From Proteobacteria bacterium UBA2136 (lineage in GTDB: Bacteria; Pseudomonadota; Alphaproteobacteria; UBA2136), in contig DCXM01000006.1 in assembly GCA_002328405.1 (NCBI GenBank), positions 104,913 through 168,912 on the forward strand: a stretch of 64,000 nt of DNA, in the 5' to 3' direction. How positions within the stretch are numbered: the first letter of the stretch is position 1; each line of letters begins with the position of its first letter. The notes beneath the pieces are model-generated. The model had not been told where the DNA came from, ran no database searches, and was given only the letters and a program-made list of their open reading frames with translations. The translations under genes were made by a program, and so were the position numbers. Shown here one piece after another: positions 10,545 to 35,528 of this stretch.

Positions 10545-10576
10545 AAAGCCCTCTTTATGAGGGCTTTTTTATTTTT
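10545..10576. terminator. bidirectional rho-independent terminator
   Basis: aaaagccctctttatgagggcttttttattttt. Confidence 0.5.
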
Positions 10577-11282
10577 GTTCTGTGTAGAACAAGCCCACAA
10601 CAGGCCCCATATTTTGCTTTTGTATCACCACCGCAGCTTCCAACCCTTCGGGTCTAAGTGGTAATGTCAGGGACAGCTCTTTTTGACCATCCCACACCTT
10701 TAACAGTTCCTTAGAGCGGACAATGTTCACCGAGTGTAAAACACGCCCTTGATTCTCACCCTTGGTGACGGATGTGACAGCTTCAGGTCTGTAAGACACA
10801 TACCAAATATTGGCGACACCGCCCATGTCAAAGGCAGGCATTTGAACATATTCTCGGCCGTTTTTTTGGCTGTAAAAAATTGGGACATTCACTTGATTAT
10901 TTCGTGCCGATGACGCCAACATTTTAACCCGCCAGCCCCATGAGGCAGTGGTTTCTGATTGACCGTCCACCACCACTTGTGGCGTGTACAGGCTGCTGTT
11001 TTCAAACTTTTCCATATAATGCACTTGCCGTTGGCTGAAAGCACCTTGGGCAAAAGGGTCTTGCCAGCCCATTTTATCCCAATAATCCACATGGAAGCTT
11101 AAGGCAAAAAAATCGTCACGCTCATTTAATTGGCGGATAACCTTCTCACCCGCAGGGCAAGATCTGCAACCTTGTGAGGTAAAAAGCTCTAACAGCACAG
11201 GCCTTGCCTGCGCAAACAAGTCGTTCACACAAAAAAGCAAAACCAAGAAGGCAAGGGTTAGTTTTTGCCACATTGCACACAC
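10569..11282 (-). CDS. DUF1223 thioredoxin-like protein (secreted, CxxC)
   Basis: Signal peptide, then ELFTSQGCRSCPAGE, which matches the DUF1223 hallmark (ELFTSQGCSSCP). Overlaps the DoxX stop, so it is likely co-transcribed with the MNIO cluster. Confidence 0.65.
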   Translation of the reverse strand: MCAMWQKLTLAFLVLLFCVNDLFAQARPVLLELFTSQGCRSCPAGEKVIRQLNERDDFFALSFHVDYWDKMGWQDPFAQGAFSQRQVHYMEKFENSSLYTPQVVVDGQSETTASWGWRVKMLASSARNNQVNVPIFYSQKNGREYVQMPAFDMGGVANIWYVSYRPEAVTSVTKGENQGRVLHSVNIVRSKELLKVWDGQKELSLTLPLRPEGLEAAVVIQKQNMGPVVGLFYTEQK

Positions 11283-11836
11283 ACCTTGTTAAATTGACGC
11301 CTCACCCAGCTATCAAGCGACAAACAGCCCGAACCACGGCTGACCACCACCATTAACAGCAGCATCCACAAATAGTGTAAGTCATGTGCTTGGTATGTCA
11401 AATGCATCACCAAGGTCATAATCAGCAAACCAAAGGCCGCAATGCGCCCACCCAAGCCAACAAACAGCATCCAAGCAAAAACAATTTCAAAAAACGTGGC
11501 ACTTAACGCTGCAAATTCAGGTGAAAGATAAGGCACATTGTATTCATATTCAAACAACATATAAGCCGTATCCGTCACTTGATAAGGCAGAGGGATAAGA
11601 GGGAACTGCACACCCAAAAAGCTGACCGTTTCAGGCAAGCCAAACAATCCTTCACCTGTCACCTTGGTGTCAGCCGACCTTAAGAAAATTAAACCCATCC
11701 AAAAGCGTATCACCAACAAATTTACTGGCTCCACCACCCGTTCTAAAAAAATAAACTTACATTGCACCAACTGGCACAACTTTCCCCAACAACCGCATTT
11801 TTTCATAGTTTGATTTTGTTCATTGTTCATGGTCAT
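11258..11836 (-). CDS. DoxX family membrane protein (bufferin-cluster associated)
   Basis: Four predicted TM helices with DoxX-like topology. Overlaps the DUF2063 gene stop; same position as DoxX in bufferin operons. Confidence 0.7.
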   Translation of the reverse strand: MTMNNEQNQTMKKCGCWGKLCQLVQCKFIFLERVVEPVNLLVIRFWMGLIFLRSADTKVTGEGLFGLPETVSFLGVQFPLIPLPYQVTDTAYMLFEYEYNVPYLSPEFAALSATFFEIVFAWMLFVGLGGRIAAFGLLIMTLVMHLTYQAHDLHYLWMLLLMVVVSRGSGCLSLDSWVRRQFNKVCVQCGKN

Positions 11837-12581
11837 CTCTCCTCACAATCAATTGATGTTGCAATGCCAGCGTTAAGGCTTGCTCTAGCGTATCTCCGCC
11901 ATCTTCTTCAGCAATGTCTCTTAAAGTTTTGCCATCAAATAGCGCTTGCATTGCACCGTACACAGCTTTTGACAGCCCCTGAACCTGACAGTCGTAGGAT
12001 TCATCTCGCCATATCAAGGCATATTCATTATGAGCCAAATCAATATTTTCGACATCAAAACCACATTGCGATTGAATGTTATTATAAAGTGAAACAGCTG
12101 CACCATTAAAAGCCATTAAACAGGCCCTATCCACTGCTTTAAAGCGTAAATTTTCCATATCATCTTCGGTTATATGAACCAATGACAGACCCGTTAAAGA
12201 CATGTCATTTTCAGCGTGTTCGCATTGGTGCACCGCCCATTCCAACTTTGCAACATCATATAAAAATGTGTAATTCTGCGCAGAGGGGTGGTTTTGCAAA
12301 AACTCAGGGAATTTTTCACCATATTCAAACAAGCAACCCGATGTCGGTGGATACGCTTTAATATACTCTTCCGCAATGTAGCGAAAATAGGCCAGATCCA
12401 CCAATTCCGCTGTGATAGGGTATGTTGTGTGCAACGCTTTTTTTAAGCTGACAAATATATTGTTTTGATAAATGGCCAGCCGCTCAACCATTTGACCACT
12501 GACAATATCATGACTTGGTAAGCTTGCACCTTCTTGTTTTAAAAAGTGCTGTTGTAAAGTCTGCTGAAGGTTATGCAACAT
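11820..12581 (-). CDS. DUF2063 domain protein, partner of the MNIO enzyme (BufC-like)
   Basis: 253 aa; N-terminal motif …LAIYQNNIFVSLKKAL… (the YRNNV-type motif of DUF2063). Start overlaps the DUF692 gene stop by 11 nt. Confidence 0.75.
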   Translation of the reverse strand: MLHNLQQTLQQHFLKQEGASLPSHDIVSGQMVERLAIYQNNIFVSLKKALHTTYPITAELVDLAYFRYIAEEYIKAYPPTSGCLFEYGEKFPEFLQNHPSAQNYTFLYDVAKLEWAVHQCEHAENDMSLTGLSLVHITEDDMENLRFKAVDRACLMAFNGAAVSLYNNIQSQCGFDVENIDLAHNEYALIWRDESYDCQVQGLSKAVYGAMQALFDGKTLRDIAEEDGGDTLEQALTLALQHQLIVRRDDHEQ

Positions 12582-13449
12582 GTTGAGGCCTTACTTTTTG
12601 TTGAACAGTCATCGCCTTTTCCATTTCCCCTATCAGTACCGAAAGCGCTGGAATCTGACTGTCCCACTCCACCAAAGTGGCTGGTCGCCTGTCTGTGCTT
12701 TTTAAAAACAATTCGTACAACTGCCAAACATCATCTGCCACTTGAGCACCATGACTATCCACTTTCACCACCTGACCAGAGGCAAGGGTTTGCAATTCAT
12801 GCCCCGCAAGGTGCACCTCCTCAACCGCATCAAACGGCATGGCGCGTAATTGATCCGTCGCATCAAGGCCCAAATTTTCCGCCGTGACATAAACATTGTT
12901 CATATCCAACAGTAAACCACAACCTGTTTTTTCCACCATTTGGCTTAAAAACTCACCTTCTGGTTGCTGACCCTTCAAATTAAAGCCAACGTAAACAGAA
13001 GGGTTTTCCATCAAAATCTTCCTGCCCAAAAATTGTTGAACCATGTCAATATGCTGGCACAGTCTTTCCAGCGCTTCTCGGGTATAAGGCAGTGGCAGAA
13101 GGTCATTGAGATGCATACCGTCCACCCCTGACCATGACACATGTTCACTGACCAACGACGGTTGATATTGATCGACAATTTCTTTAAGGCGTTTTAGGTG
13201 TTTAAGGTCTGGCCTTGTGTGTGAACCTAGGGACAAACCAACACCGTGAAAACTTAGAGGATAATGTTCAGCCAATGCCTGCAAATAGGCATGCGCCTTA
13301 CCGCCTAATGCAAAAAAATTTTCACTGTGTACTTCCAAAAACCCAATTTCAGGCTTTTGTTCTAGAATTTCTTGATAATGCGGTGCACGCAATCCCACAC
13401 CTACATGAGCTGTGAGGTCTTGTGCACCATTTGGTCGGATGTCGTTCAT
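12571..13449 (-). CDS. multinuclear non-heme iron-dependent oxidative enzyme, MNIO/DUF692 (BufB-like)
   Basis: 292 aa; hallmark DUF692 motifs VGVGLRAPHY and FLEVHSENFF, TIM-barrel-like length. Abuts the precursor gene stop (13450). Confidence 0.85.
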   Translation of the reverse strand: MNDIRPNGAQDLTAHVGVGLRAPHYQEILEQKPEIGFLEVHSENFFALGGKAHAYLQALAEHYPLSFHGVGLSLGSHTRPDLKHLKRLKEIVDQYQPSLVSEHVSWSGVDGMHLNDLLPLPYTREALERLCQHIDMVQQFLGRKILMENPSVYVGFNLKGQQPEGEFLSQMVEKTGCGLLLDMNNVYVTAENLGLDATDQLRAMPFDAVEEVHLAGHELQTLASGQVVKVDSHGAQVADDVWQLYELFLKSTDRRPATLVEWDSQIPALSVLIGEMEKAMTVQQKVRPQHVA

Positions 13450-13713
13450 TTAAGACTCGGACGATTCCAAACTGCCGTTTACCAGCTTATCGCAAAGCCC
13501 TTTTGGAACGTAAACCCATTCAGTGGTGTCGCCATCTTCTTTTGACATACCTGCGCATGAGTGTACCGATGTACCACAGTCGTTTTGACCGGCTTTAGCA
13601 ACACCATAACATTTTTCATGTTCTTTTTTCTTCGCTTCAGCTTCACTGGCAGCGCCCGTGGTTGCAAGCGCACCTGTTAGCGCCAAGAAAGCCAATTTCG
13701 TTGTATTGTTCAT
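13450..13713 (-). CDS. DUF2282 precursor peptide (bufferin-like RiPP precursor, BufA-like)
   Basis: 87 aa. Sec signal peptide ([25 protein letters not shown]), then core [42 protein letters not shown] with 4 Cys in the DUF2282 pattern CYGVxxAGxNDC…HxCAG…WxxVPKGxC. Confidence 0.8.
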
Positions 13714-13921: not shown

Positions 13922-15442
13922 TTACCAAGCGTCAAACTTGCCTTTAAATTCAGGGTCAGCGTAGTAGCGGATTTTTTCTGCTAAGACCGGACGACAACCC
14001 TGGACAAAAATAACCTGTGCGTCGTTTGGCATCCGCATCACTTCATCAGGGGTCATGAGAGGTCTCGACGTTTCGGAAACGTTGCTGCTGACATTGCCAC
14101 CAAACCACTGCCCCTTCTCCTTCGAGGTCCCTTCACCTGCCACACGGACCGTGGTTGTACCCATCATGTCAGACAAAATTTTGGCGGTGTCAAAGTCATT
14201 GGTACCAAAAGCCATCCGAACACTACAGTTGGCAATTAAGGACGCCCACTTGGGATAATCTTCCTTAATTTGTGATAAATCCTGAATAAACATCCAAAGG
14301 GAAATGCCATAACCAGCCAAATAACCGACACCTGATTCGATGTTTTTCATGTAACCAAGGGCTGGAAACTCATCAATAATAAACAAAGTTGGGTCTTTTG
14401 GTTTTTCTTGGGTACGGGTCAGCGTGGCAATAGTGATACCCATCATCAAACGCACTACAGGCTTGTATACATCTAAATACTCAGGTGGAATAATCACATA
14501 AAAAGATGTCGGCTCTTTTTTAATGTCTTCTAATTTAAAGTCACTGCGTGATGTGATGGAGGTTAGCCTTGGGCTGTCCCAAACAGCGGTTTGCGACTTT
14601 GCGGTGGAAAGAACCGAAGCCAATACCTTAGGCTCGGTCGCCGCTACTGAGTTAGCAATCCTTTGGATAATTTGGTTTTTACTGCGCTGCATGTCTTTAA
14701 TGGTCAGCTGAAAGTCTTTTTGGTCCTGCATAATCAGGTAACGCACCTCGCCCAAGTTGCGCAGCGCCGCAGGGCTTTCATTGGCCACATAAAGAATAAG
14801 GCCTGTGATCACGGTTTTTGCTTCATTGGTCCAAAACTCATCGCCACCACCGGGGACAATAATCATATCCGCAATTAAGGCGGCATCATCCAACTCATCA
14901 CTGGTGTTAATGCGAATAAAATCAATGGGGTTAAAGCAACCGCTACCTTCCATAAACGGTGCAAACGTGATTACTTTTGAAAATTGTGCACGGTGACGAC
15001 CAGAAACGGCGTAGTTTTCACCTTTAATGTCATTCACAACCACAGATCCTGGGTGGTCCAACAAGTTTGGAATAACGTGACCAACACCCTTACCACTACG
15101 TGTCGGTGCAAACGTGATTAAGTGACCAGGACTGCGAAAGCGCACAAATTTATTATCAAACTTGCCCAGCATAAAGCCATTTTCACGGACAAGATCCGCT
15201 TCTTTAAGATCCTTCATGGTTGCAAAGTCAGCAGAACCGTGGGCATGACTTGCCTTGCCTTGCATTTTCTTAAGTTCGCCCACTTGCTTTTTATAGCCTG
15301 CTTTGGGGCGATTTTTAAAATAAATATAAGCCATCGCAACAACAGCGGCAACAACCGCTGGAATCATCAACCCTTCCGGTACAACAAAAGGAATGGCCGC
15401 AGCCACCACAAGAGCTGTATACAAAAAAGTTTTTTGAGACAT
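13922..15442 (-). CDS. virD4: type IV secretion system coupling protein, VirD4/TraG family
   Basis: 506 aa; two N-terminal TM helices, Walker A APTRSGKGVGHVIPNLL (VirD4 type), Walker B LFIIDEFPALG. No other T4SS genes in the window. Confidence 0.75.
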   Translation of the reverse strand: MSQKTFLYTALVVAAAIPFVVPEGLMIPAVVAAVVAMAYIYFKNRPKAGYKKQVGELKKMQGKASHAHGSADFATMKDLKEADLVRENGFMLGKFDNKFVRFRSPGHLITFAPTRSGKGVGHVIPNLLDHPGSVVVNDIKGENYAVSGRHRAQFSKVITFAPFMEGSGCFNPIDFIRINTSDELDDAALIADMIIVPGGGDEFWTNEAKTVITGLILYVANESPAALRNLGEVRYLIMQDQKDFQLTIKDMQRSKNQIIQRIANSVAATEPKVLASVLSTAKSQTAVWDSPRLTSITSRSDFKLEDIKKEPTSFYVIIPPEYLDVYKPVVRLMMGITIATLTRTQEKPKDPTLFIIDEFPALGYMKNIESGVGYLAGYGISLWMFIQDLSQIKEDYPKWASLIANCSVRMAFGTNDFDTAKILSDMMGTTTVRVAGEGTSKEKGQWFGGNVSSNVSETSRPLMTPDEVMRMPNDAQVIFVQGCRPVLAEKIRYYADPEFKGKFDAW

Positions 15443-15555
15443 TGAAGCTTTACGCCTTATATTTTTTATTCACTATACACGCCGTACCAAACCTGTAAAG
15501 ACAAGCGCACCATTATAACCGCCCTGCTGTGACTTTGCAGTAGCACTTACAAGGG

Positions 15556-15804
15556 CTAGCGCTCTAAATCAAAGCCTTGTTCTTGCTCATGTTGTTGCTC
15601 AAGGCTTTTATCCATGACTTTATCACGGCCTTTCTCCAGCGCCATTTGAACTTGGCGAGACTGCGCAAGATAAACTTCATGCGTTTGCTCGGATTCTTTT
15701 AAAATCGTTTGAGCCGCACTCAACTCACCCTCGAGTGGTTTAATTTCACCATCTAAAAGCTCTTTAATTTGAGCAGATTTTTTTTCTCCATCAATCACAA
15801 CCAT
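15556..15804 (-). CDS. hypothetical coiled-coil protein (82 aa)
   Basis: Glu/Lys/Gln-rich helical ORF, translationally coupled (3-nt gap) to the upstream 183-aa ORF; upstream of virD4. Confidence 0.35.
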   Translation of the reverse strand: MVVIDGEKKSAQIKELLDGEIKPLEGELSAAQTILKESEQTHEVYLAQSRQVQMALEKGRDKVMDKSLEQQHEQEQGFDLER

Positions 15805-15807
15805 TTT

Positions 15808-16359
15808 TTAAACTCCCTTTAGTATATGCCCAAGCCAATTGGCAATTTTTTTGCCTTCGTTGAATGACTTTTTCATTTGTTCATAATTTATTGTATGCGC
15901 AACTTCTTTTGCGCGCAACCTGCCCCCAGTATTCACAACACCAAAAAGTGAAAAACCACGCAAATTACCAAAAACAGCCGGACGATTGCGCAGTGTCCAA
16001 CCTGTTTTAATCAGCCCTTTAACACCTTCCCACTGCAAACATTTTTGTTCTGCTTGGCTTGGTTTTTTGTAAACAATGCTAAAATTCGTACGCAAGTCTT
16101 TTTGAATCAGTTCCAATTTTGAGCGTATATCCTTAAAATCCTGCTTTAGGATTTGAATTTGATTCTCAATTTTTCGCACACGCCTTTTATTACCCCAAAT
16201 TGTGGAATCGCTCTCTTCCAGTGCCTTATTGAGGTAATGATTCAGCGCCGCCAGCTCGCTGGGTTTCATATTGTTTACAAGGTCAGAAAATTGGGCCTCT
16301 TTCCCAGTGTGACCCAGTATTTCCTTCAGTTCTGGCCTTGCGGCAAGAATATCCATCAT
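15808..16359 (-). CDS. hypothetical protein (183 aa)
   Basis: Intact ORF, no recognisable domain; first gene of a three-gene string ending in virD4. Confidence 0.4.
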   Translation of the reverse strand: MMDILAARPELKEILGHTGKEAQFSDLVNNMKPSELAALNHYLNKALEESDSTIWGNKRRVRKIENQIQILKQDFKDIRSKLELIQKDLRTNFSIVYKKPSQAEQKCLQWEGVKGLIKTGWTLRNRPAVFGNLRGFSLFGVVNTGGRLRAKEVAHTINYEQMKKSFNEGKKIANWLGHILKGV

Positions 16360-16560
16360 AAGTTCCCTTTTGCTTACACAGTTAATCCCCTTAACAGTTA
16401 TTTATAGAACATCACACCAATTCAATTATTAAAAAAACTTACACCTCCTGACACCTCAGGTTTTTATTATTTTTTTGATAAATAAGATATTTAGGCTTGC
16501 ATTCCATTCTACGCACCCCTACACCTTTTTAAAGAGGGAATTTAATGACGAGGGCAAGCC

Positions 16561-17106
16561 ATGCCACAACGTGATAAGTATGAAAAACTGTTGGATTTGA
16601 CGTCTCAAATGTCGTCTGATCAACAAATTGAGTTCATCCACAAAATTATAACCGACATTCCGCTTCAAACATTTTTTAATGAAAGAGATGCGCAAACAAT
16701 TGCACCCGTGGTGGACCTTATTCAAGAAACACTCACCTACAACATAGAAGCTAATTTATTTGAAGAAATGTTGGGATTGATGGCCTTTAAATGCGAAGAC
16801 ACCCATAACAAAAGCAAAGCATCAGTGCAAACGGTAACACATCAAAAAAAGGCTAAAGCCGCTTCCTACATAACAGATGCGGTATACAGCAGCTTAGAGT
16901 TCATTTACCATGAGCAACAAGAAAAAAGCTGCCCAATCAACATTATGCATATTTTAAACAACATTGAACTGGGTTATAAGTGGCTTAATGAATCAGCCAG
17001 TAAACCACATAAATTTTTAGAAACCTCTGCAGAAACAGCGCTAGAGATTCTGAATTGTGAAAAACCCCTTTATGTGGCAGAAGTTGTCAACTTCCCCAAC
17101 CGCTAG
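16561..17106 (+). CDS. hypothetical protein (181 aa)
   Basis: Intact ORF; no domain recognised. Confidence 0.4.
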   Translation: MPQRDKYEKLLDLTSQMSSDQQIEFIHKIITDIPLQTFFNERDAQTIAPVVDLIQETLTYNIEANLFEEMLGLMAFKCEDTHNKSKASVQTVTHQKKAKAASYITDAVYSSLEFIYHEQQEKSCPINIMHILNNIELGYKWLNESASKPHKFLETSAETALEILNCEKPLYVAEVVNFPNR

Positions 17107-18563
17107 AGCGTTGCGGACACATCCACAGTGATTGACACCTCAGCTGAGGAAACAGCACCCGTTAAGCTAACAGGTTCAACTTCCGCTTCCACGTCAACCT
17201 CTGTTTCACCTTCAACTACGATTACAGTAGGTGAGACAACTTTAACAACCCCATCTACCACCACAGCCGTTTCGGACACATCACTTTGTGGCATAACAGC
17301 TGTTTCGCTGACTTCTAAGGTAGGGGCAGCTGAGGGCTGACTTTCGTCCACCTCAAGGCCTGTCACTTCTGTCACAGAGCTCATTCCTTGTGACTTATCT
17401 TCTACCGCTTCAGGGTCAGAAGTCACCACATCTTCCACATCCCCCAAGTAAGACTCTAAAATATGGTTAAAACTTGGCACAAACATCATAATAGGGAAGC
17501 CATTAAACAACACTTTTTGACCTGTACTTTCGAAGTGAATTTCTACCTCTTCTTGTCCTTTAGGGGTGAATTTGGTGAGGTCCACCGGTGCTTCATTAAC
17601 ACCGCCAATATGGTTTAAAGCATCAATGTTTTTAAGTTTAATGCGCATTTGCCCCACGGGCTTCATATCGTCATTCAGGCGTAACTGATATGAAAGTTCC
17701 CCTTCAAAGTCATCAATTTTAAGGGATAAATCTTCCAAAGAAAATTCAGCCCCTTGCTGAGCCATATTCTTTGCAAAGGCCATGAGGGAATTTTTTAGCG
17801 CCCGTTTTTGTGCAGTGGTCGCATTTTGAGCGTCCAAAGCGTGCACAGCGTCTAACAATACACGCACATCAGTTGGCATATTTTTCAACAAAAGTTTAAA
17901 ACTAAAAGCATCCACTTCAAAACTGTTCTCGGCTTGCAAATCAAAGAATGTTGCACCTGAAACTTTGACAGATGTTTCACCATTCAATGCACCTTTTGTG
18001 GTTTTATCTGACGAGTTAAGGTGAATAGAGTTGACAGTTAACAAGCGTTTTTCCGCAATGTCTTCCGATGTCACATAAACATCCAAATCACTCATCACGC
18101 CCTTGTAATTCTTGGAAACGCCCCAAACACCTTCACCCACAGAGCGGGCAATGTTAAAACGCATTTGAACATTGTCTTGGTCGGACTGGACATCCACAAC
18201 ACCTTCAAAGTCCTTAATAAAGCTGTGAACCTGAATGGGTTGACCTGTAAACACTTTATAAAAATCAAAAATGGAAACATAGACGCGGTTTTCGCCACTG
18301 GTTGTAAGCTTAGCGCGGTGGTTTGTGCTTTTTTCAAACAAAATAAGACCAACATTTTCCACATCAAACCCAGCCTTAAAAGGAAAGCCCGTTGGTTTGA
18401 GAGTGTAATGAACATCCACGTCTGTTTTAGGGTTTGAAAGTTGCAATCTTTCAATATTTTGTGCAACAACCTCTTCAACTTTGTGAAGGGTTTGAAGCCA
18501 CAAAAAGTACCAGCCAACTGTAACTGCCAGCAAAACAACAAACAACCAACTTAAGCGCTTCAT
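17103..18563 (-). CDS. hypothetical N-terminally anchored protein with Val/Glu/Thr/Ser-rich repetitive C-terminus
   Basis: N-terminus MKRLSWLFVVLLAVTVGWYFLW (signal anchor, reminiscent of alphaproteobacterial DUF2125 proteins). C-terminal ~100 aa carries SETAV/VxVE repeats. Confidence 0.45.
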   Translation of the reverse strand: MKRLSWLFVVLLAVTVGWYFLWLQTLHKVEEVVAQNIERLQLSNPKTDVDVHYTLKPTGFPFKAGFDVENVGLILFEKSTNHRAKLTTSGENRVYVSIFDFYKVFTGQPIQVHSFIKDFEGVVDVQSDQDNVQMRFNIARSVGEGVWGVSKNYKGVMSDLDVYVTSEDIAEKRLLTVNSIHLNSSDKTTKGALNGETSVKVSGATFFDLQAENSFEVDAFSFKLLLKNMPTDVRVLLDAVHALDAQNATTAQKRALKNSLMAFAKNMAQQGAEFSLEDLSLKIDDFEGELSYQLRLNDDMKPVGQMRIKLKNIDALNHIGGVNEAPVDLTKFTPKGQEEVEIHFESTGQKVLFNGFPIMMFVPSFNHILESYLGDVEDVVTSDPEAVEDKSQGMSSVTEVTGLEVDESQPSAAPTLEVSETAVMPQSDVSETAVVVDGVVKVVSPTVIVVEGETEVDVEAEVEPVSLTGAVSSAEVSITVDVSATL

Positions 18564-18792
18564 ATAATCACTCCATATTTGTATGATAGACTTGTGAGTA
18601 TAGGGGCAAACGCCTTTTTTTTAAACCATTTTCTAGTCCAAATCATTAGACCTTGCCCACAAGACTTATTTTTGCTATTTTTGATGAGATACAACTTTAC
18701 AACATATTCTTTTCATTCACCCAAACCTACACTCTTGTCATTACATACAAATAATTGACATTTATCAAAAACATACCTGTGGAGGTATCGTT

Positions 18793-19671
18793 ATGCAGTC
18801 ACCCAAGTACCCAACCCTGACTAAAAAAGGGTTTTTAACCAAGCGTGGGCATGACCTGGACAAAAACCTCATTGAATTTTTAAATGAAGTGATTTCCCAA
18901 ATGCCTCACGGCTTACCCCTTAATAGCAAAATACGTGGATTGTACGCACAAGACCTTTATATGCAAACGTATGAAGGTCAAGCATCACCACAACTGCCTT
19001 TTGCTGAAAATATCAGCGAAGAAACCTTGCGGCAAAACCTGTTTGAATGGACACAAAACTCTCCGCTTCGGCTGATTACATCTTATGATCCTAATCAGTC
19101 AAACAGCCCGCAAGTGTACCTTGAGCGCTACCCGTTGTTCATCACGGAAGAATTGATTGGATACATTCACTTTTTCCGCACCAGTGATGAACCGCACTTG
19201 CACACCCACCCGTGGCGCACATCTTACAGCGCCATTTTAGCAGGTGGATACACCGAAACCCGCTTGAAGGACATGACGTTACTAGCCGAAGGGAAAGGCT
19301 GTGTTCAACATCAACGTTCCGCCGGGAGCTTTGGCAGTTTAACCCATCAAACCCAGCACTTTGTAACCCTCCCGCAAACCGCAACGGGTGAACGCACCTG
19401 CTGGACCCTGTTTTTGCACCACCGCAACTGGGAATACGGCTGGGGATTTACTGAAAATGAACCTGTTGTCGCCAAAGTGTGGGATGACCTTGCCAATGAT
19501 GGAAACGGTGAATACAAAGAAACTTCTGGCACGTTGTTTGTCACCAAAGAAAAAGGTGGCGGTGCGAACAAAAAAAGCTGGTGGACCATGGAGCAAGGAC
19601 CAACTCGTTTTATTGATAAAGCCCACATCCTCAGGGAAAAGTACCAGCTTTCCAAAGATAGCTATTTATAA
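18793..19671 (+). CDS. hypothetical protein (292 aa) with His-rich HLHTHPW motif
   Basis: GGAGG RBS; possible metal-binding His cluster (cupin-like?) but no confident family assignment. Confidence 0.45.
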   Translation: MQSPKYPTLTKKGFLTKRGHDLDKNLIEFLNEVISQMPHGLPLNSKIRGLYAQDLYMQTYEGQASPQLPFAENISEETLRQNLFEWTQNSPLRLITSYDPNQSNSPQVYLERYPLFITEELIGYIHFFRTSDEPHLHTHPWRTSYSAILAGGYTETRLKDMTLLAEGKGCVQHQRSAGSFGSLTHQTQHFVTLPQTATGERTCWTLFLHHRNWEYGWGFTENEPVVAKVWDDLANDGNGEYKETSGTLFVTKEKGGGANKKSWWTMEQGPTRFIDKAHILREKYQLSKDSYL

Positions 19672-19698
19672 AAACAACCCCTTCGAATAAAAACACCC

Positions 19699-19730
19699 TC
19701 AATGCGAGGGTGTTTTTTTGTTTATCTACA
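19699..19730. terminator. bidirectional rho-independent terminator
   Basis: acaccctcaatgcgagggtgttttttt between convergent genes. Confidence 0.5.
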
Positions 19731-19738
19731 AGCTTCTG

Positions 19739-20110
19739 TTAAAAGCCTTTGATACCATGCACTACCATCAAACAGCCAAAAATGGCTACCATCGCACCGC
19801 TGATGACCCATAAATTCACCTTTGCTTGATCCACAATAATCGCCATCAACGTCATCCAAATCACTGTAAAAATGACTGTACCTACACCGCCAATGGTCGC
19901 ACCACCAATTTCGTAAGCCTTACCAATCAAATAATTAGAAGGGCCAAAAAACAAAGGGAAGGCTGCAATGATCCGCAAAACAACATTGTCGGTCAATGCG
20001 TATAGACCGCCAAAAACAGAAGGGAACAAAAAGCCATTTAAAAAAGCAATACCCAAATAAACACCCGCCATACCAAGGGCTGATAATGCAAACGCATAAA
20101 CTGTAATCAT
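19739..20110 (-). CDS. hypothetical small integral membrane protein (123 aa, ~4 TM)
   Basis: Highly hydrophobic with Gly-rich helices. Start overlaps the upstream helicase gene stop (ATGA), so it is co-transcribed with it. Confidence 0.45.
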   Translation of the reverse strand: MITVYAFALSALGMAGVYLGIAFLNGFLFPSVFGGLYALTDNVVLRIIAAFPLFFGPSNYLIGKAYEIGGATIGGVGTVIFTVIWMTLMAIIVDQAKVNLWVISGAMVAIFGCLMVVHGIKGF

Positions 20111-30680: not shown

Positions 30681-33600
30681 TTAGTTAACCAAGCCTTTTA
30701 ACTGCCCTAAAGCAACGTTTAAAATGGCGTGAGAGACTTCTTCGTTCTCCTTCAACTCCTCAATAAATTTGTTGTATTGAGTCATTGAACCATTTTTGGT
30801 GCCAAGCCAGCATTTAACAGCGTCGCCTGCTTGTTTAATTTTACCGCACTCCTTGTCTTCAATCACATGGCCGGTAATTTCTTTTTGATAACCATATAAC
30901 TGCTCAATGATAGACAAGCTACCCACCCGTTGCCAGTTGTTGGTCACGGGGATTGCACGAGTACGTTTGTGCAGGTAATCAAACTCCAAGCTTTCACCCA
31001 CTCTAAAGTGCAGGTCCATCACCTCGCCCACTTTTTTCTGACGTTCCATGGCAATGGTTGCCACATCGGCCGAACAGTTAAGCGTTGGCATCAGAGACCA
31101 TTCCTTTGCAACTTTTGCAGGCACGCCCATTTCAAGCCATGTGGATTCACGCTTGTTAATGCGTTCTTGCATGTCCGCCGTTAAGTGTTTTGGCAACACC
31201 TTACGAATGTCATCAAAGTAAGTTTGGAACGCTTTTAAGCTTTTCTCCACGTTCAATGGTTTGTCCTTACCATTACGCAAGAACCAAAACGCTGTACCTT
31301 CTAAAAGTTTTTTAACGACATTACGCATTTCTTTTTGGACATTGGCGTTCACCTTGTTATCCAAGGCATCAATGGCGTCATACCATTTTTGTGCACCCAA
31401 TAGTTTCTTAGAAATAACAAAGGCACGGGTAATGGTGCAAGCCTCGTGGCCTGTTTCATCCATCATACGGTCCATAAAGGTCATACCCATGCGGTTGATC
31501 AGCTCATTGGTCACCTTCGTTGCAATAATTTCCGTTTTCAGGCGGTGCTTTTGCATAAAGTCTTTGTATTTACGCTGCAACTTGGTTGGGAAGTAGTCGT
31601 ACAGGTACAAGTCTTCCATCACCGTCTCACTTGGCAACTTGCTGTTCACCAAAGTGTTGTAAAGGTCCATTTTGGTGTAAGCCATCAATACAGAAAGTTC
31701 TGGCCTTGTAAGCCCTCTTCCTTCCTTAGAACGTTGTTCCAGCTCTTCCTCATCTGGTAGGTATTCCAACTTACGGTTTAGGAAACCTTTCTTCTCAAGC
31801 GATGTTAACAAGCGCTTGTGCGGTTCCAACATATCCTTACTGACCATTTGCGCAATACTTAAAATTTGTGACTGACGGTAGTTGGCTTCCAGTGAAAGTT
31901 CACCCACCTCTTCTGTCATTTCTTCTAACAATTTATTACGTGCCGCTTCTTTAAGTTTGCCGGTTTCTTCAACCAAACGGAGCAACACTTTAATGTTCAC
32001 CTCAATGTCAGAACAGTTGACACCGGCCGAGTTATCAATCGCATCGGTGTTGACGTAACCACCTTTAGCCGCATAATCAATACGTGCCAGTTGGGTAAAG
32101 CCTAAGTTACCGCCTTCGCCAAGGGCTTTCACACGTAGCTCATCCGCATTGATACGAATGGCATCATTGGCACGGTCGCCCACTTCGGCGTTGCTCTCTT
32201 CCTTAGACTTCACAAAGGTACCAATACCGCCGTTCCACAGCAGATCAACTGGTGCTTTTAAAATGCACTGAATCAATTCATTCGGTGTCATCTTCGCTTG
32301 ATTTACACCGAGCACTTGCTGCATTTCTTTTGAAATTTCAACCGACTTTTCACCACGACTGATGATGGCACCACCTTTTGAAATGGCATTTGTGTCATAA
32401 TCCGCCCAAGTAAGCCTTGGGTTTTTAAACAGGCGTTGACGTTCCTTGTAACTTTTCGCCACGTCTGGGTTCGGGTCTAAGAAGATGTGCATATGGTTGA
32501 ACGCTGCCACCAACTTCGTATGCTTGGAAAGCAACATGCCGTTACCAAACACGTCCCCCGCCATGTCGCCAATGCCTACGCAGGTAAAGTCTTCTTCTTG
32601 AATGTTGCGACCCATTTCACGGAAATGGTGTTTCACACATTCCCAAGCGCCACGGGCAGTGATACCCATTTTTTTATGGTCATAACCGTTTGAACCGCCT
32701 GATGCAAAGGCATCGCCAAGCCAGAAGCCTGCATCGGTGCCATCCCAATAGTCGGCAGTTAACGCCTGTTCATTGGCAAGGTCTGAAAATGTGGCGGTAC
32801 CTTTATCCGCTGCCACAACAAGGTACGGGTCATCGCCGTCCTTCATCACCACGTTACGTGGGTGAAGCACTTTACCTTCAAATAAGTTATCGGTCACCGA
32901 AAGCAAACCGTGGATAAACACCTTGTAAGCCGTTTGCACAGCTTCCATCATCGATGCTCTATCCTTGCTTTCAGGTTCCGCCTTCAGGACAAAACCACCT
33001 TTTGAACCCAACGGCACAATCACCGCATTTTTGGTCATCTGTGTTTTCATCAAGCCAAGCACTTCGGTTCTAAAGTCTTCTGGACGGTCCGACCAGCGTA
33101 AACCACCACGTGCCACCATGCCACCACGCAAGTGAACACCTTCCACCACACTGTGGTAGACAAAAATTTCATACATGGGGTGTGGTTTTGGCAGGTTTGG
33201 CACCTTGGCACTTTCCACCTTAAAGGCTAGTGGCGCTGTCGCCTCTTCATTTTGGAAGGCGTTGGTACGCACGCACGCATTGATCACGCCCCAAATTTGG
33301 CGCAAAATCACGTCCTCATCCAGTGACTTCACCTGCGCCAAGGTTTCTTCTAATTTACCTGCAATCGCTTTTTCAGACTTTTCACGCACCGCTTTTGAAA
33401 GCGCTGGGTTAAAGCGAGCATCAAAAAGTTCACACAAGGTGCGGGAAATATCAGCATGCTTGATTAAAGTTTGGCGGATATATTCTTTTGAGTAAGGCAT
33501 CACGCACTGCTGGAGGTAAGCCACAAAAGCTCGCAAATAAACCACTTCGCGGATGTTGAGCCCAGCTTCAACAATCAATGCATTCAAGCTGTCATTTTCC

Positions 33601-35528
33601 AATTCGCCACACCATGCGCGTTCCACCGCTTCTGTGAGAACATTTCTCACATTTTCGTCATAAATGCACTTTTGATTCGCATTTACGGCAACACCAAAAT
33701 CATGCACCCAAACGCCTGGTTCGTTCAAAGCTTCAATGTATGTTGAGTTCTCATCTGTGATGTAAAGACCCATGTTATTGAAGGTTGGCATCAACTGGGA
33801 CAAGCCAATTCGTTCTTCTTTATGGAGCACTTTTAAATGCACTTCCTTTTCTTCTCCTAGAGCGATGGAAACCAAGAAGTTGAGGTCATATTTAAACATG
33901 TTTTCAAAGGATGTAATGTCCTGCAACGCCATGTAAACATTGTTGTTTTCTTGGTAACCAAGGCGGAAAGCGCCTTTGTATTTTTTGTGTAAGCTTAAAC
34001 CCTCACGCTCACCATAAGCGTCGCAAAGCTGGTGTTCCAAGTCGTCCGTCCACGACCTTGCAACTTCACGGATCCGCGCTTCCACTTCCAGCTCTTTCAC
34101 CTGTGGGACAGACGGTGGGTTGGAACGAATTTTTAGGTACAATCGCGCAAGACGTGATTCGCCTACGTTCATCAAATATTCAATATCTTCAGCGTTGTAT
34201 TCTTCTGTTAAAATGGCAACAATTTTCTTACGCAACGCACTGCTCATACGGTCTAGCGGAATAAAGACCATGGCGGTGGTCAACAACTCGTGACGGCTTT
34301 GACGAACAAAAAGGCGCACCTGTTGACGTTCCTTTAAATTCAAAATCCCGGTAGAAATACGTTCTAAATCATCCACATCAATTTGGAAAAGCTCGTCCCT
34401 TGGGTACATTTCAAGGATGTTGACCAACGCTTTGTAGTTGTGAGACTGTGGCGGCAAGTTGGTTTGTGCGGACAGCACCTTTTCAATTTTACGGCGGACA
34501 ATTGGAATTTGCCTTGGGTTGGTGGTGTACGCGCGGGATGTCAACAGACCAAGGAAGCGGTGTTCGCCAATCACGTTGCCTTTTTCGTCAAATTCTTTAA
34601 TACCGATGTAGTCCATGTCTGCCCTGCGGTGAACTGGAGACTTGGTGTTGGCTTTGGTAATAGTGACAAAATCTTTTTTGTTGGAGTAATAATGTTTAAG
34701 GTTTGGCGGCACATCATCTAAACATGTTTTTTCATAAACAGATGACGTTTTATCATCACGCAAAATGCCTAAACCACTGCGCTTGGAAAGCGCCATGTAT
34801 GTCTTTTTATTTTCGTGTGAAATTTTATAATGGCGATAACCTAAGAAAATGTAATTTTTGTTAATCAGCCATTTGAAAAACTCAGATTCTTCGCTGTGCT
34901 TTTTGGCCGTTGTGGACTTTTCAACCTTTTGCACCAAAGCATCCATTTTTTTCACCATACCTGCAAAGTCACGGCTAACAGCTGCAGCTTCTTTTAAAAC
35001 ATGTTGAATAGCGGCTTCAATTTCTTCTAACAAAGAATCTTCAGGAATATATTCCAATTCCATGTGGATCAACACTTCACGGTTGTAACCTTCTGGCGCC
35101 TCGCCTGAATCAGTGTTGTCCTCAAACTCAAGCAAACGGCCGTTTTTATCTCTCTTCACCAAGAAAACAGGGTGGAAGGTGTGGCGCACTTCAATGTCCC
35201 TATCTTGGGCTTCTTCCCACATGGAATCCACCAAAAATGGGCCATCGTCCATGTAAACTTCAATCACCACATTGCTGGTGTCCTGCGCGCGGTAGACCGA
35301 AACATGCTGTTCACCCGGTTTAAAGGCCTTTAAAACATCAAAAGCGTGCTCCATATGTTTATCAAAGTGAGGGCGATTATCAATCAGTGAGACGACTTCT
35401 GCCTCTGGCGTTCTGTCAAAATAAAGTTGCGCAAATTTTGCTAAATTTTTGCCCTGCTTGTTTTTTTGAAGTTTTTTGATAAAAGTTTGAAAACTTTTTT
35501 TACCGCTCTTGGTTTCAATTGGCGCCAT
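30681..35528 (-). CDS. gdhB: NAD-specific glutamate dehydrogenase, large (~180 kDa) Bac_GDH family
   Basis: 1615 aa single ORF; characteristic length and central catalytic region (…GGxRWSDRPEDFRTEVLGL…, KGTATFSD) of giant NAD-GDHs. Confidence 0.9.
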   Translation of the reverse strand: MAPIETKSGKKSFQTFIKKLQKNKQGKNLAKFAQLYFDRTPEAEVVSLIDNRPHFDKHMEHAFDVLKAFKPGEQHVSVYRAQDTSNVVIEVYMDDGPFLVDSMWEEAQDRDIEVRHTFHPVFLVKRDKNGRLLEFEDNTDSGEAPEGYNREVLIHMELEYIPEDSLLEEIEAAIQHVLKEAAAVSRDFAGMVKKMDALVQKVEKSTTAKKHSEESEFFKWLINKNYIFLGYRHYKISHENKKTYMALSKRSGLGILRDDKTSSVYEKTCLDDVPPNLKHYYSNKKDFVTITKANTKSPVHRRADMDYIGIKEFDEKGNVIGEHRFLGLLTSRAYTTNPRQIPIVRRKIEKVLSAQTNLPPQSHNYKALVNILEMYPRDELFQIDVDDLERISTGILNLKERQQVRLFVRQSRHELLTTAMVFIPLDRMSSALRKKIVAILTEEYNAEDIEYLMNVGESRLARLYLKIRSNPPSVPQVKELEVEARIREVARSWTDDLEHQLCDAYGEREGLSLHKKYKGAFRLGYQENNNVYMALQDITSFENMFKYDLNFLVSIALGEEKEVHLKVLHKEERIGLSQLMPTFNNMGLYITDENSTYIEALNEPGVWVHDFGVAVNANQKCIYDENVRNVLTEAVERAWCGELENDSLNALIVEAGLNIREVVYLRAFVAYLQQCVMPYSKEYIRQTLIKHADISRTLCELFDARFNPALSKAVREKSEKAIAGKLEETLAQVKSLDEDVILRQIWGVINACVRTNAFQNEEATAPLAFKVESAKVPNLPKPHPMYEIFVYHSVVEGVHLRGGMVARGGLRWSDRPEDFRTEVLGLMKTQMTKNAVIVPLGSKGGFVLKAEPESKDRASMMEAVQTAYKVFIHGLLSVTDNLFEGKVLHPRNVVMKDGDDPYLVVAADKGTATFSDLANEQALTADYWDGTDAGFWLGDAFASGGSNGYDHKKMGITARGAWECVKHHFREMGRNIQEEDFTCVGIGDMAGDVFGNGMLLSKHTKLVAAFNHMHIFLDPNPDVAKSYKERQRLFKNPRLTWADYDTNAISKGGAIISRGEKSVEISKEMQQVLGVNQAKMTPNELIQCILKAPVDLLWNGGIGTFVKSKEESNAEVGDRANDAIRINADELRVKALGEGGNLGFTQLARIDYAAKGGYVNTDAIDNSAGVNCSDIEVNIKVLLRLVEETGKLKEAARNKLLEEMTEEVGELSLEANYRQSQILSIAQMVSKDMLEPHKRLLTSLEKKGFLNRKLEYLPDEEELEQRSKEGRGLTRPELSVLMAYTKMDLYNTLVNSKLPSETVMEDLYLYDYFPTKLQRKYKDFMQKHRLKTEIIATKVTNELINRMGMTFMDRMMDETGHEACTITRAFVISKKLLGAQKWYDAIDALDNKVNANVQKEMRNVVKKLLEGTAFWFLRNGKDKPLNVEKSLKAFQTYFDDIRKVLPKHLTADMQERINKRESTWLEMGVPAKVAKEWSLMPTLNCSADVATIAMERQKKVGEVMDLHFRVGESLEFDYLHKRTRAIPVTNNWQRVGSLSIIEQLYGYQKEITGHVIEDKECGKIKQAGDAVKCWLGTKNGSMTQYNKFIEELKENEEVSHAILNVALGQLKGLVN

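Follow-up and report, generated by a model that had tools for sequence, protein, structure and literature searches.

The BID domain (Pfam PF17841; Stanger et al. 2017 as cited in PMC6509941) and a positively charged tail together form the signal recognised by VirD4-type type IV coupling proteins (T4CPs), and are found in relaxases, in toxins and in the Beps of Bartonella (PMC6509941, PMC5675462). BID domains have been described as tags on cargo, almost always linked to a VirB/VirD4 locus in Alphaproteobacteria (PMC6509941, PMC5675462). Here we describe three genes on the minus strand of a 64-kb stretch of DNA from Proteobacteria bacterium UBA2136 (contig DCXM01000006.1; the whole stretch of 64,000 nucleotides is called the window below). 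They encode a 183-residue protein that we identify as a stand-alone BID domain, a small acidic protein and a complete T4CP, and they appear to form a module that a chromosome has domesticated from a mobilisable element. The open reading frames (ORFs), as given in the ORF list of the window, are:

16359..15808, minus strand, 183-residue ORF (BID domain protein)
15804..15556, minus strand, 82-residue ORF (acidic protein)
15442..13922, minus strand, 506-residue ORF (T4CP)

The closest relatives of the T4CP are found in integrative and mobilisable elements (IMEs) of Alphaproteobacteria (loci L006, L022 and L028 of our comparison). These elements share its short T4CP subfamily and have a BID-like domain homologous to the 183-residue protein (independent E-value, iE, 2.6e-13). 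In the window, by contrast, BID stands on its own without a nuclease domain, NikA, integrase, ParA and cargo defence genes are absent, and the locus is a vertically inherited one among housekeeping genes. The Beps of Bartonella, VbhT and rhizobial TraA have in common with our module the four-helix bundle with a hook and the genetic linkage to a VirD4-like T4CP (PMC6509941), but the protein here carries no N-terminal cargo (FIC, toxin or relaxase), its positive tail varies among homologues and no virB locus is linked. The hosts differ too: they are not Rhizobiales pathogens but uncultured bacteria sampled from marine, freshwater and soil environments.

Three further systems resemble parts of the module. 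In Helicobacter pylori, CagZ is a helical protein of about 180-200 residues encoded beside the T4CP Cag-beta, which is the best structural match of the T4CP studied here; CagZ binds the all-alpha domain of Cag-beta and controls its hexamerisation and ATPase activity (PMC9886983). This likeness is an analogy only: no homology or fold match was found between the 183-residue protein and CagZ (only BID was matched), and Cag-beta belongs to a full type IV secretion system (T4SS) island. The Ti-type DNA transfer and replication (Dtr) operon traC-traD-traG, with divergent traA, also has small proteins directly upstream of the T4CP gene and a BID-bearing protein in the system, but the 82-residue protein has no detectable similarity to TraD or the neighbouring small proteins, and the locus has no relaxase or origin of transfer (oriT). 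Finally, the adaptor-chaperones of Agrobacterium (VirE1/VirE2) and Legionella (IcmS/IcmW) provide examples of a small acidic protein encoded beside the gene of a T4SS substrate or adaptor. The module shares with them this gene arrangement (the substrate or adaptor being a proposed one here) and the charge complementarity; no sequence similarity was found, and the role of the 82-residue protein is one that we infer.

Results

A stand-alone BID domain protein

Four independent routes agree on the nature of the 183-residue protein. When its family profile was compared with the PDB, the top match was the BID domain of Bartonella Bep9 (4yk2_A, E = 2.4e-4), and other BID structures (4nps/7zbr and 4yk3) were matched as well. 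PF17841 matched 4 of 12 family members (best E = 4.7e-4), and NCBI labels one homologue (P0131) a 'BID domain-containing protein'. The AlphaFold2 (AF2) model (pLDDT 90.8; structure predictions were made with database homologues) showed an N-terminal helical extension (60-80 residues) and, after it, a bundle of four helices whose hook lies at about residues 126-144, and the top eight Foldseek matches in the PDB were all BID crystal structures (best TM-score 0.67, on the target). Lastly, the family profile matched the C-terminal region of relaxase-type proteins of 550-650 residues in L021, L022 and L028 (iE down to 2.6e-13). These proteins, which are encoded beside related T4CPs, contain one or two tandem BID copies at about residues 350-540. 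The relaxase of L006 gave a weak match.

We therefore identify the protein, from profiles and predicted fold, as a stand-alone BID domain. Neither domain searches nor the AF2 model showed a catalytic or N-terminal cargo domain (relaxase, FIC or PezT/Zeta toxin). An earlier note on this DNA had called the 183-residue and 82-residue proteins coiled-coil unknowns and had proposed structure prediction as a check; for the former, the BID fold replaces that description.

The protein is basic (pI 9.9, net charge +13), and is 182 residues long in the NCBI call, which starts from the second ATG. Its family evolves fast, with 26% identity where the T4CP has 68%. Nonetheless, the gene is under purifying selection (pN 0.18-0.27 versus pS about 0.75), a motif (L+N.P..FG.L+G...G...R..A) is kept, and the length is constant (182-189 residues in 30 homologues). 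A search of 1.84 billion representatives yielded about 25 clusters of full-length stand-alone BID relatives (175-210 residues), and the remaining matches were multi-BID proteins of 350-1900 residues.

A complete coupling protein of a short subfamily

The 506-residue protein was matched by PF02534 (T4SS-DNA_transf) over residues 82-500 (E = 5.8e-97; 325.9 bits versus a gathering cut-off of 20.1), and also by PF12696 (TraG-D_C) and PF10412 (TrwB_AAD_bind). Its Walker A (APTRSGKGVG) and Walker B (LFIIDEF) motifs were invariant in 18 family members. It lies below every NCBIfam equivalog cut-off: the best model, IncP-type TraG (PRK13876), scored 326 bits versus a cut-off of 674, and the VirD4 equivalogs PRK13897 and PRK13850 scored 258 versus 728 and 222 versus 681, respectively. 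In the AF2 model (pLDDT 72.6 overall, about 90 in the all-alpha domain), a transmembrane (TM) hairpin (about residues 3-19 and 23-44), with a periplasmic loop of just about 4 residues, precedes a nucleotide-binding domain and an all-alpha domain (about residues 203-296). There is no extended C-terminal tail. Foldseek placed Cag-beta first (8dol, 4.9e-22), followed by TrwB and DotL. The Pfam and Foldseek matches bear out the description of this gene, made in the earlier note, as a VirD4/TraG-type Walker A/B protein.

That note had also remarked that the protein is shorter than classical VirD4, had suggested checking it for a C-terminal truncation by alignment, and had considered that it might be a truncated pseudogene. 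It is indeed shorter, but not truncated: the homologues listed are mostly 506-545 residues long, a normal length in this large subfamily, and align with it end to end. Among members of its clade dN/dS was 0.04-0.07. Because its length is normal for the subfamily, its motifs are intact and dN/dS is low, the protein does not qualify as a truncated copy or pseudogene, and we classify it as a complete VirD4/TraG-type coupling protein of a naturally short subfamily. The exact 506-residue sequence is present on many marine metagenome contigs and in the Tara metagenome-assembled genome (MAG) GCA_002687415.1, which is labelled 'Magnetococcales bacterium'. An anti-phage defence system was considered and rejected, as PADLOC gave only a weak P-loop match to mad8.

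A small acidic protein coupled to the BID gene

The 82-residue protein is acidic (pI 4.8), so that its charge is complementary to that of the BID protein (pI 9.9). An acidic ORF of 62-102 residues (pI 4.0-5.1) was present at the equivalent position in all eight BID-containing loci compared, and in all eight its start overlaps the BID stop codon or sits within a few nucleotides of it. ORFs of 90-101 residues also lie downstream of the BID gene in two more loci, L092 and L093. In the window, the two genes are 3 nt apart, and the ribosome-binding site of the 82-residue protein gene (GGGAG) lies inside the 3' end of the BID gene. The gene of the acidic protein is translationally coupled to the BID gene.

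The sequence of this ORF is weakly constrained (dN/dS 0.3-0.9) and hardly alignable across the clade, and the protein is probably largely disordered or helical. It had no Pfam or NCBIfam match, and profile methods found no homologues. A TraD/TraC-like relaxosome accessory was ruled out (hhalign probability <=0.1%, no Pfam match), and there was no similarity to the TraD copies and the hypothetical protein of the Sphingobium plasmid pSAMIE_5, or to the 76-residue protein upstream of an IME T4CP. The protein evolves fast. The pairing of an acidic with a basic protein suggests a chaperone or neutraliser, and we propose that the 82-residue protein serves the BID protein as chaperone, neutraliser or adaptor.

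Vertical inheritance in housekeeping neighbourhoods

The clade to which the T4CP belongs was found in 14 GTDB species-representative genomes and on further metagenome contigs (56-100% T4CP identity), and the MAGs concerned are labelled Magnetococcales, Alphaproteobacteria or Proteobacteria. The neighbourhoods are those of housekeeping genes: AhpC/TrxR, RmuC, SRP54, alanyl-tRNA synthetase (AlaRS), isocitrate dehydrogenase, SDH/ETF, Def/Fmt, flagellar hook and TatC. No integrase, relaxase or VirB gene was found in these neighbourhoods (about 15 loci). T4CP identity follows that of the core neighbours, at 85% in L007 versus 83% for RmuC and 89% for SRP54, and at 67% in L009 versus 57% for RmuC. 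We regard the module, on this comparative evidence, as vertically inherited under strong selection.

The T4CP is the constant part of the module and its partners vary. The order BID-acidic-T4CP was found in L001, L003, L007, L008, L012, L017, L019, L020 and L093. In one sub-lineage the BID gene is replaced by that of an unrelated conserved protein of 162-182 residues (L013:9288-9776, L014:9295-9786 and L015:9364-9912). A short ORF upstream of it encodes an acidic protein with repeats of the 'DAR' type, and Pfam matches neither of the two proteins.

A TatD-like paralogue of 355-400 residues lies directly upstream of the BID gene in a high-GC sub-lineage (L089:7961-9028, L019:7765-8967 and L093:4094-5182). 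Its presence in two different chromosomal contexts suggests that it travels with the module. By eye, the L012/L089 copy has apparently lost the N-terminal HxH metal motif.

Probable origin from a mobilisable element

In a neighbour-joining (NJ) tree the chromosomal T4CPs formed one clade, and its sister group consisted of short T4CPs of mobile elements (IMEs), which are 44-52% identical to the T4CP of the window. The protein encoded beside the T4CP has MobA/VirD2 nuclease and TraI_middle domains in L028, where NikA is adjacent, and Pfam Relaxase and TraI_middle domains in L006. Both islands combine relaxase and NikA with integrase/ParA or defence cargo (the integrase being in L006), and no VirB genes were found within 20 kb in either. 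The closest plasmid T4CPs are more distant (36-41% identity) and occur in Ti-type traA / traD-traD-T4CP arrangements.

Most simply, the module can be read as a descendant of the pair of T4CP and BID-bearing MobA/VirD2-type relaxase of alphaproteobacterial IMEs. A chromosome would have captured the T4CP/relaxase pair of a mobilisable element; the nuclease domain of the relaxase would then have been lost, and the part that serves T4CP recognition (BID) kept as a separate gene. Since the chromosomal T4CPs are monophyletic, lie in housekeeping contexts and evolve about as slowly as core genes (dN/dS 0.04-0.07), we interpret the module as a domesticated descendant of such an element and not as a decaying relic. 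The earlier proposal that the locus is a relic of an integrative and conjugative element (ICE) is therefore upheld as regards origin, in that the sister group consists of IME T4CPs, but not as regards its present state, which is one of vertical inheritance in housekeeping contexts.

Some of the mobile-element relatives have features of their own. The Sphingomonadales island of L028 encodes two different short T4CPs (L028:9752-11335 and L028:16967-18541), as well as NikA, a relaxase whose C-terminus is BID-like and a restriction-modification gene of the MmeI type. Plasmid pSAMIE_5 (NZ_AP018668.1; L091, L094) is typed by MOB-suite as 'conjugative, MPF_T', but its gene table (a PLSDB table that is possibly incomplete) lists traA, two traD and the T4CP and no VirB genes, so that the plasmid looks mobilisable rather than conjugative.

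A VirB11-like ATPase in relatives

Channel components were sought by tblastn with TrbB/C/D/E/F/I/J/L (Trb/VirB) and relaxase queries against 447 kb of sequence, comprising the window and the loci of the clade. The sole match was a VirB11-like ATPase of 321 residues in L011. Its gene (12139-13104, minus strand) lies about 700 nt downstream of the T4CP gene and is convergent with it; the best model was the VirB11 equivalog (219.6 bits versus a cut-off of 249.95). Orthologues in JGI metagenomes (48-61% identity) are likewise solitary among housekeeping genes. The VirB11-like ATPases of relatives are 321-342 residues long (for example L104:9965-10963 and L098:10007-11035) and have BipA, MFS and GatB as neighbours.

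Two orthologues could be related to T4CP-bearing genomes. One is on Ga0233446_1000001, a contig of 1,776,261 nt, which is equal in length to the longest contig with T4CP P0023 and BID protein P0130 and has a GC content of 0.35, as has L003; it appears to be the same 1.78-Mb contig as that of P0023. The other is on a Tara contig of 993,775 nt, which agrees in GC (0.476) and size with the T4CP-bearing contig of UBA6503. From the matching contig sizes and GC contents, we conclude that a solitary VirB11-like ATPase and a solitary T4CP coexist in at least some clade members, which lends modest support to a plausible scattered T4SS.

Organisation and surroundings of the locus

The ORFs agree with the three minus-strand genes described before, the first two of them 3 nt apart, and the T4CP gene follows after a gap of 113 nt. 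The candidate regulatory features, all read on the minus strand, are:

15499..15472, minus strand, candidate sigma70-type promoter TTTACA-16-TATAGT in the 113-nt gap (10/12 consensus matches; low confidence)
16360..16560, minus strand, intergenic region 5' of the BID gene, divergent from a 181-residue ORF (presumed operon promoter)

Given the sigma70-like site in the gap, the T4CP gene may have a promoter of its own in addition. By consensus scan, such sites are not more frequent in the region than expected from shuffled sequence, and the gap is not conserved in L007, L008 or L003. The operon promoter presumably lies within 16360..16560, where the consensus scan placed promoter-like sites at 16533..16506 and 16454..16425; compared with L007 and L008, conservation in this region is limited to an AT-rich tract and the ribosome-binding site. 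No oriT-like feature or significant inverted repeat was found in 16360..16560, and no conserved repeat that might be a relic oriT or regulatory element in the intergenic regions of the module. An Rfam scan of the whole window gave no match. A relic oriT or regulatory RNA was thus ruled out for the intergenic regions. The window contains no tRNA and no att repeats, and GC content around the module (0.41-0.45) is like that of the rest of the window.

The remainder of the window is core genome, including NusA, RbfA, TruB, S15, PNPase, GDH, aconitase, MetK, Lnt and YbeY. The GDH (30681-35528, minus strand) is a NAD-specific glutamate dehydrogenase of 1615 residues (Bac_GDH family), an ordinary core gene remarkable for its size alone. 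Between the BID gene and a Pif1 helicase gene (16561-20110) lie four genes without assignable annotation. They encode proteins of 181, 486 and 292 residues and a membrane protein of 123 residues; the 486-residue protein has an N-terminal TM segment and an acidic tail rich in valine and glutamate. Identity to L007 is only 30-60% for these four and 81-92% for the genes that flank them.

Directly downstream of the T4CP gene is a bufferin-type cluster for a ribosomally synthesised and post-translationally modified peptide (RiPP; 10569-13713, minus strand), which consists of a BufA1/DUF2282 precursor, an MbnB-like enzyme, HvfC/DUF2063 and DoxX, plus DUF1223. Its immediate adjacency to the module, pointed out earlier, is real. 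In L003 the cluster again adjoins the T4CP gene but is inverted, in L009/L010 just DUF1223 and RmuC are left of this neighbourhood, and in most other loci of the clade the cluster is absent. Because the cluster is inverted in one locus and missing in most others while DUF1223 and RmuC stay, we read the adjacency as local synteny rather than as a functional link. The neighbourhood looks like a hotspot of gain, loss or inversion.

Discussion

The reading that we favour, to which we give a probability of roughly 50%, is that of a domesticated BID/acidic/T4CP module, in which the T4CP binds a cargo-less BID protein attended by an acidic chaperone and feeds a channel encoded elsewhere. The T4CP would be anchored in the inner membrane by its TM hairpin and form the usual ATP-driven hexamer. 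By analogy with other T4CPs, it would bind the BID fold most likely via its all-alpha domain. As the BID protein has no cargo domain, it could be a dedicated translocated substrate, or else a T4CP-bound adaptor or regulator, like CagZ for Cag-beta. Until docking, the acidic protein would keep its strongly basic BID partner in solution or inactive, as VirE1 does for its partner. Crossing of the envelope would use a VirB/Trb-type channel encoded elsewhere; such a channel is hypothetical, its sole hint being the VirB11-like ATPase of relatives. The suggestion of the earlier note that the two upstream proteins are partners or substrates of the T4CP gains strongly from the BID domain in the case of the 183-residue protein, while for the 82-residue protein it is drawn from coupling and charge.

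Several findings weigh against this reading. The 183-residue protein of the window does not by itself match PF17841, so that the BID assignment comes from family profiles and the predicted fold. The positive C-terminal tail, which is the second half of the canonical bipartite signal, is not conserved: over the last 20 residues, the window protein has a net charge of +3 and its homologues one of -4 to +2. In L009/L010, L011, L013-L015, L016 and L018 no BID gene lies beside the T4CP gene, and therefore the T4CP can persist without an adjacent BID gene. The absence of VirB components, relaxase and oriT from the window, as claimed before, was confirmed by Pfam annotation of called genes, tblastn and repeat scans; no VirB/Trb channel component, VirB4 or relaxase was found either in the window or in the 447 kb searched. 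The VirB11-like gene is known from relatives and not from the genome of the window itself.

A possible but doubtful alternative is that the T4CP has been repurposed and needs no channel, and that this FtsK-like membrane ATPase works together with the BID protein but without any VirB channel. They might translocate or remodel protein or DNA at the inner membrane, or be a decoy that interferes with incoming conjugative elements by titrating their machinery. The lack of channel genes near any of about 15 clade loci, a conservation and context so like those of housekeeping genes as to be unusual for an accessory part of a secretion system, the very short periplasmic loop of the TM hairpin and the replaceable partner gene would all fit. 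Against this, we know of no T4CP that works without a mating-pair-formation (MPF) channel. The BID domain has also been kept, though its sole established primary role is that of a type IV secretion signal (PMC6509941), which argues for secretion. Moreover, the VirB11-like ATPase near the T4CP in L011 points to further T4SS parts, and PADLOC gave no defence-system match.

We think it clearly unlikely that the T4CP is a trans-acting hijacker, which docks onto the channel of a resident or incoming conjugative element and exports the BID protein, or an item bound to it, when the element is present. The mobile relatives provide precedents, since the sister-group T4CPs lie in islands that have relaxase and NikA and lack VirB genes within 20 kb, and a related plasmid has just traA, traD and the T4CP; T4CP-only elements dependent on foreign channels appear to be the norm in the family. 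UBA6503, furthermore, has a second T4CP, borne on a mobile element. But a foreign channel that is available sporadically fits poorly with core-like purifying selection and retention across a deep lineage, and no relaxase or oriT is left with which to mobilise DNA.

A scattered T4SS of the rvh type, homologous to the Rickettsiales system, had been suggested earlier and seems to us very improbable. Solitary T4CP and VirB11-like genes among housekeeping genes do resemble the scattered rvh layout, and to this extent the idea of a scattered system gains some support from the VirB11-like ATPase. In rvh systems, virB8-9-10-11-D4 are clustered and virB4/6/8/9 are duplicated; neither a virB8-9-10-11-virD4 cluster nor duplicated virB4/6/8/9 was found in the window or related loci. 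The T4CP is far below the VirD4 equivalog cut-offs, is closest to TraG of the IncP/IME type and groups with IME T4CPs in the NJ tree, and none of the MAG labels is Rickettsiales. The rvh type is therefore not upheld.

Least probable of all is a decaying ICE or IME relic, with a truncated or non-functional T4CP and upstream ORFs as remnants: its mobile-element origin is supported and the relaxase nuclease domain has been lost, but we judge it excluded by the data on selection and conservation, as the T4CP is full-length with intact motifs and low dN/dS, about 15 divergent genomes have conserved the module in housekeeping contexts, the BID length is fixed in 30 homologues, and there is no integrase, tRNA, att repeat or GC anomaly.

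In the literature searched we found no example of a BID gene that stands alone and is coupled, outside a T4SS or mobile-element locus, to a vertically inherited chromosomal T4CP, and nothing relevant on orphan chromosomal T4CPs. What is new here is a BID tag that stands on its own, is coupled to the gene of its receptor ATPase and has been retained by uncultured bacteria as stably as their core genes. It is a clear case of a transfer module of a mobile element that has been domesticated by the host chromosome. If T4CP and BID protein interact, the pair would be a minimal natural system for the recognition of the BID fold by a T4CP, which is still an open structural question. A bolder and rather unlikely proposal is that a deep, uncultured aquatic lineage has domesticated the T4CP and the bare BID domain of a former relaxase, possibly with a VirB11-like ATPase, as a core machine without a canonical VirB channel. 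This would be a new minimal use of the energising parts of a T4SS, with the first BID protein that partners or regulates a T4CP instead of tagging cargo, and, if the genomes prove free of channel genes, the module would be the first sign that a T4CP can have a role independent of a channel.

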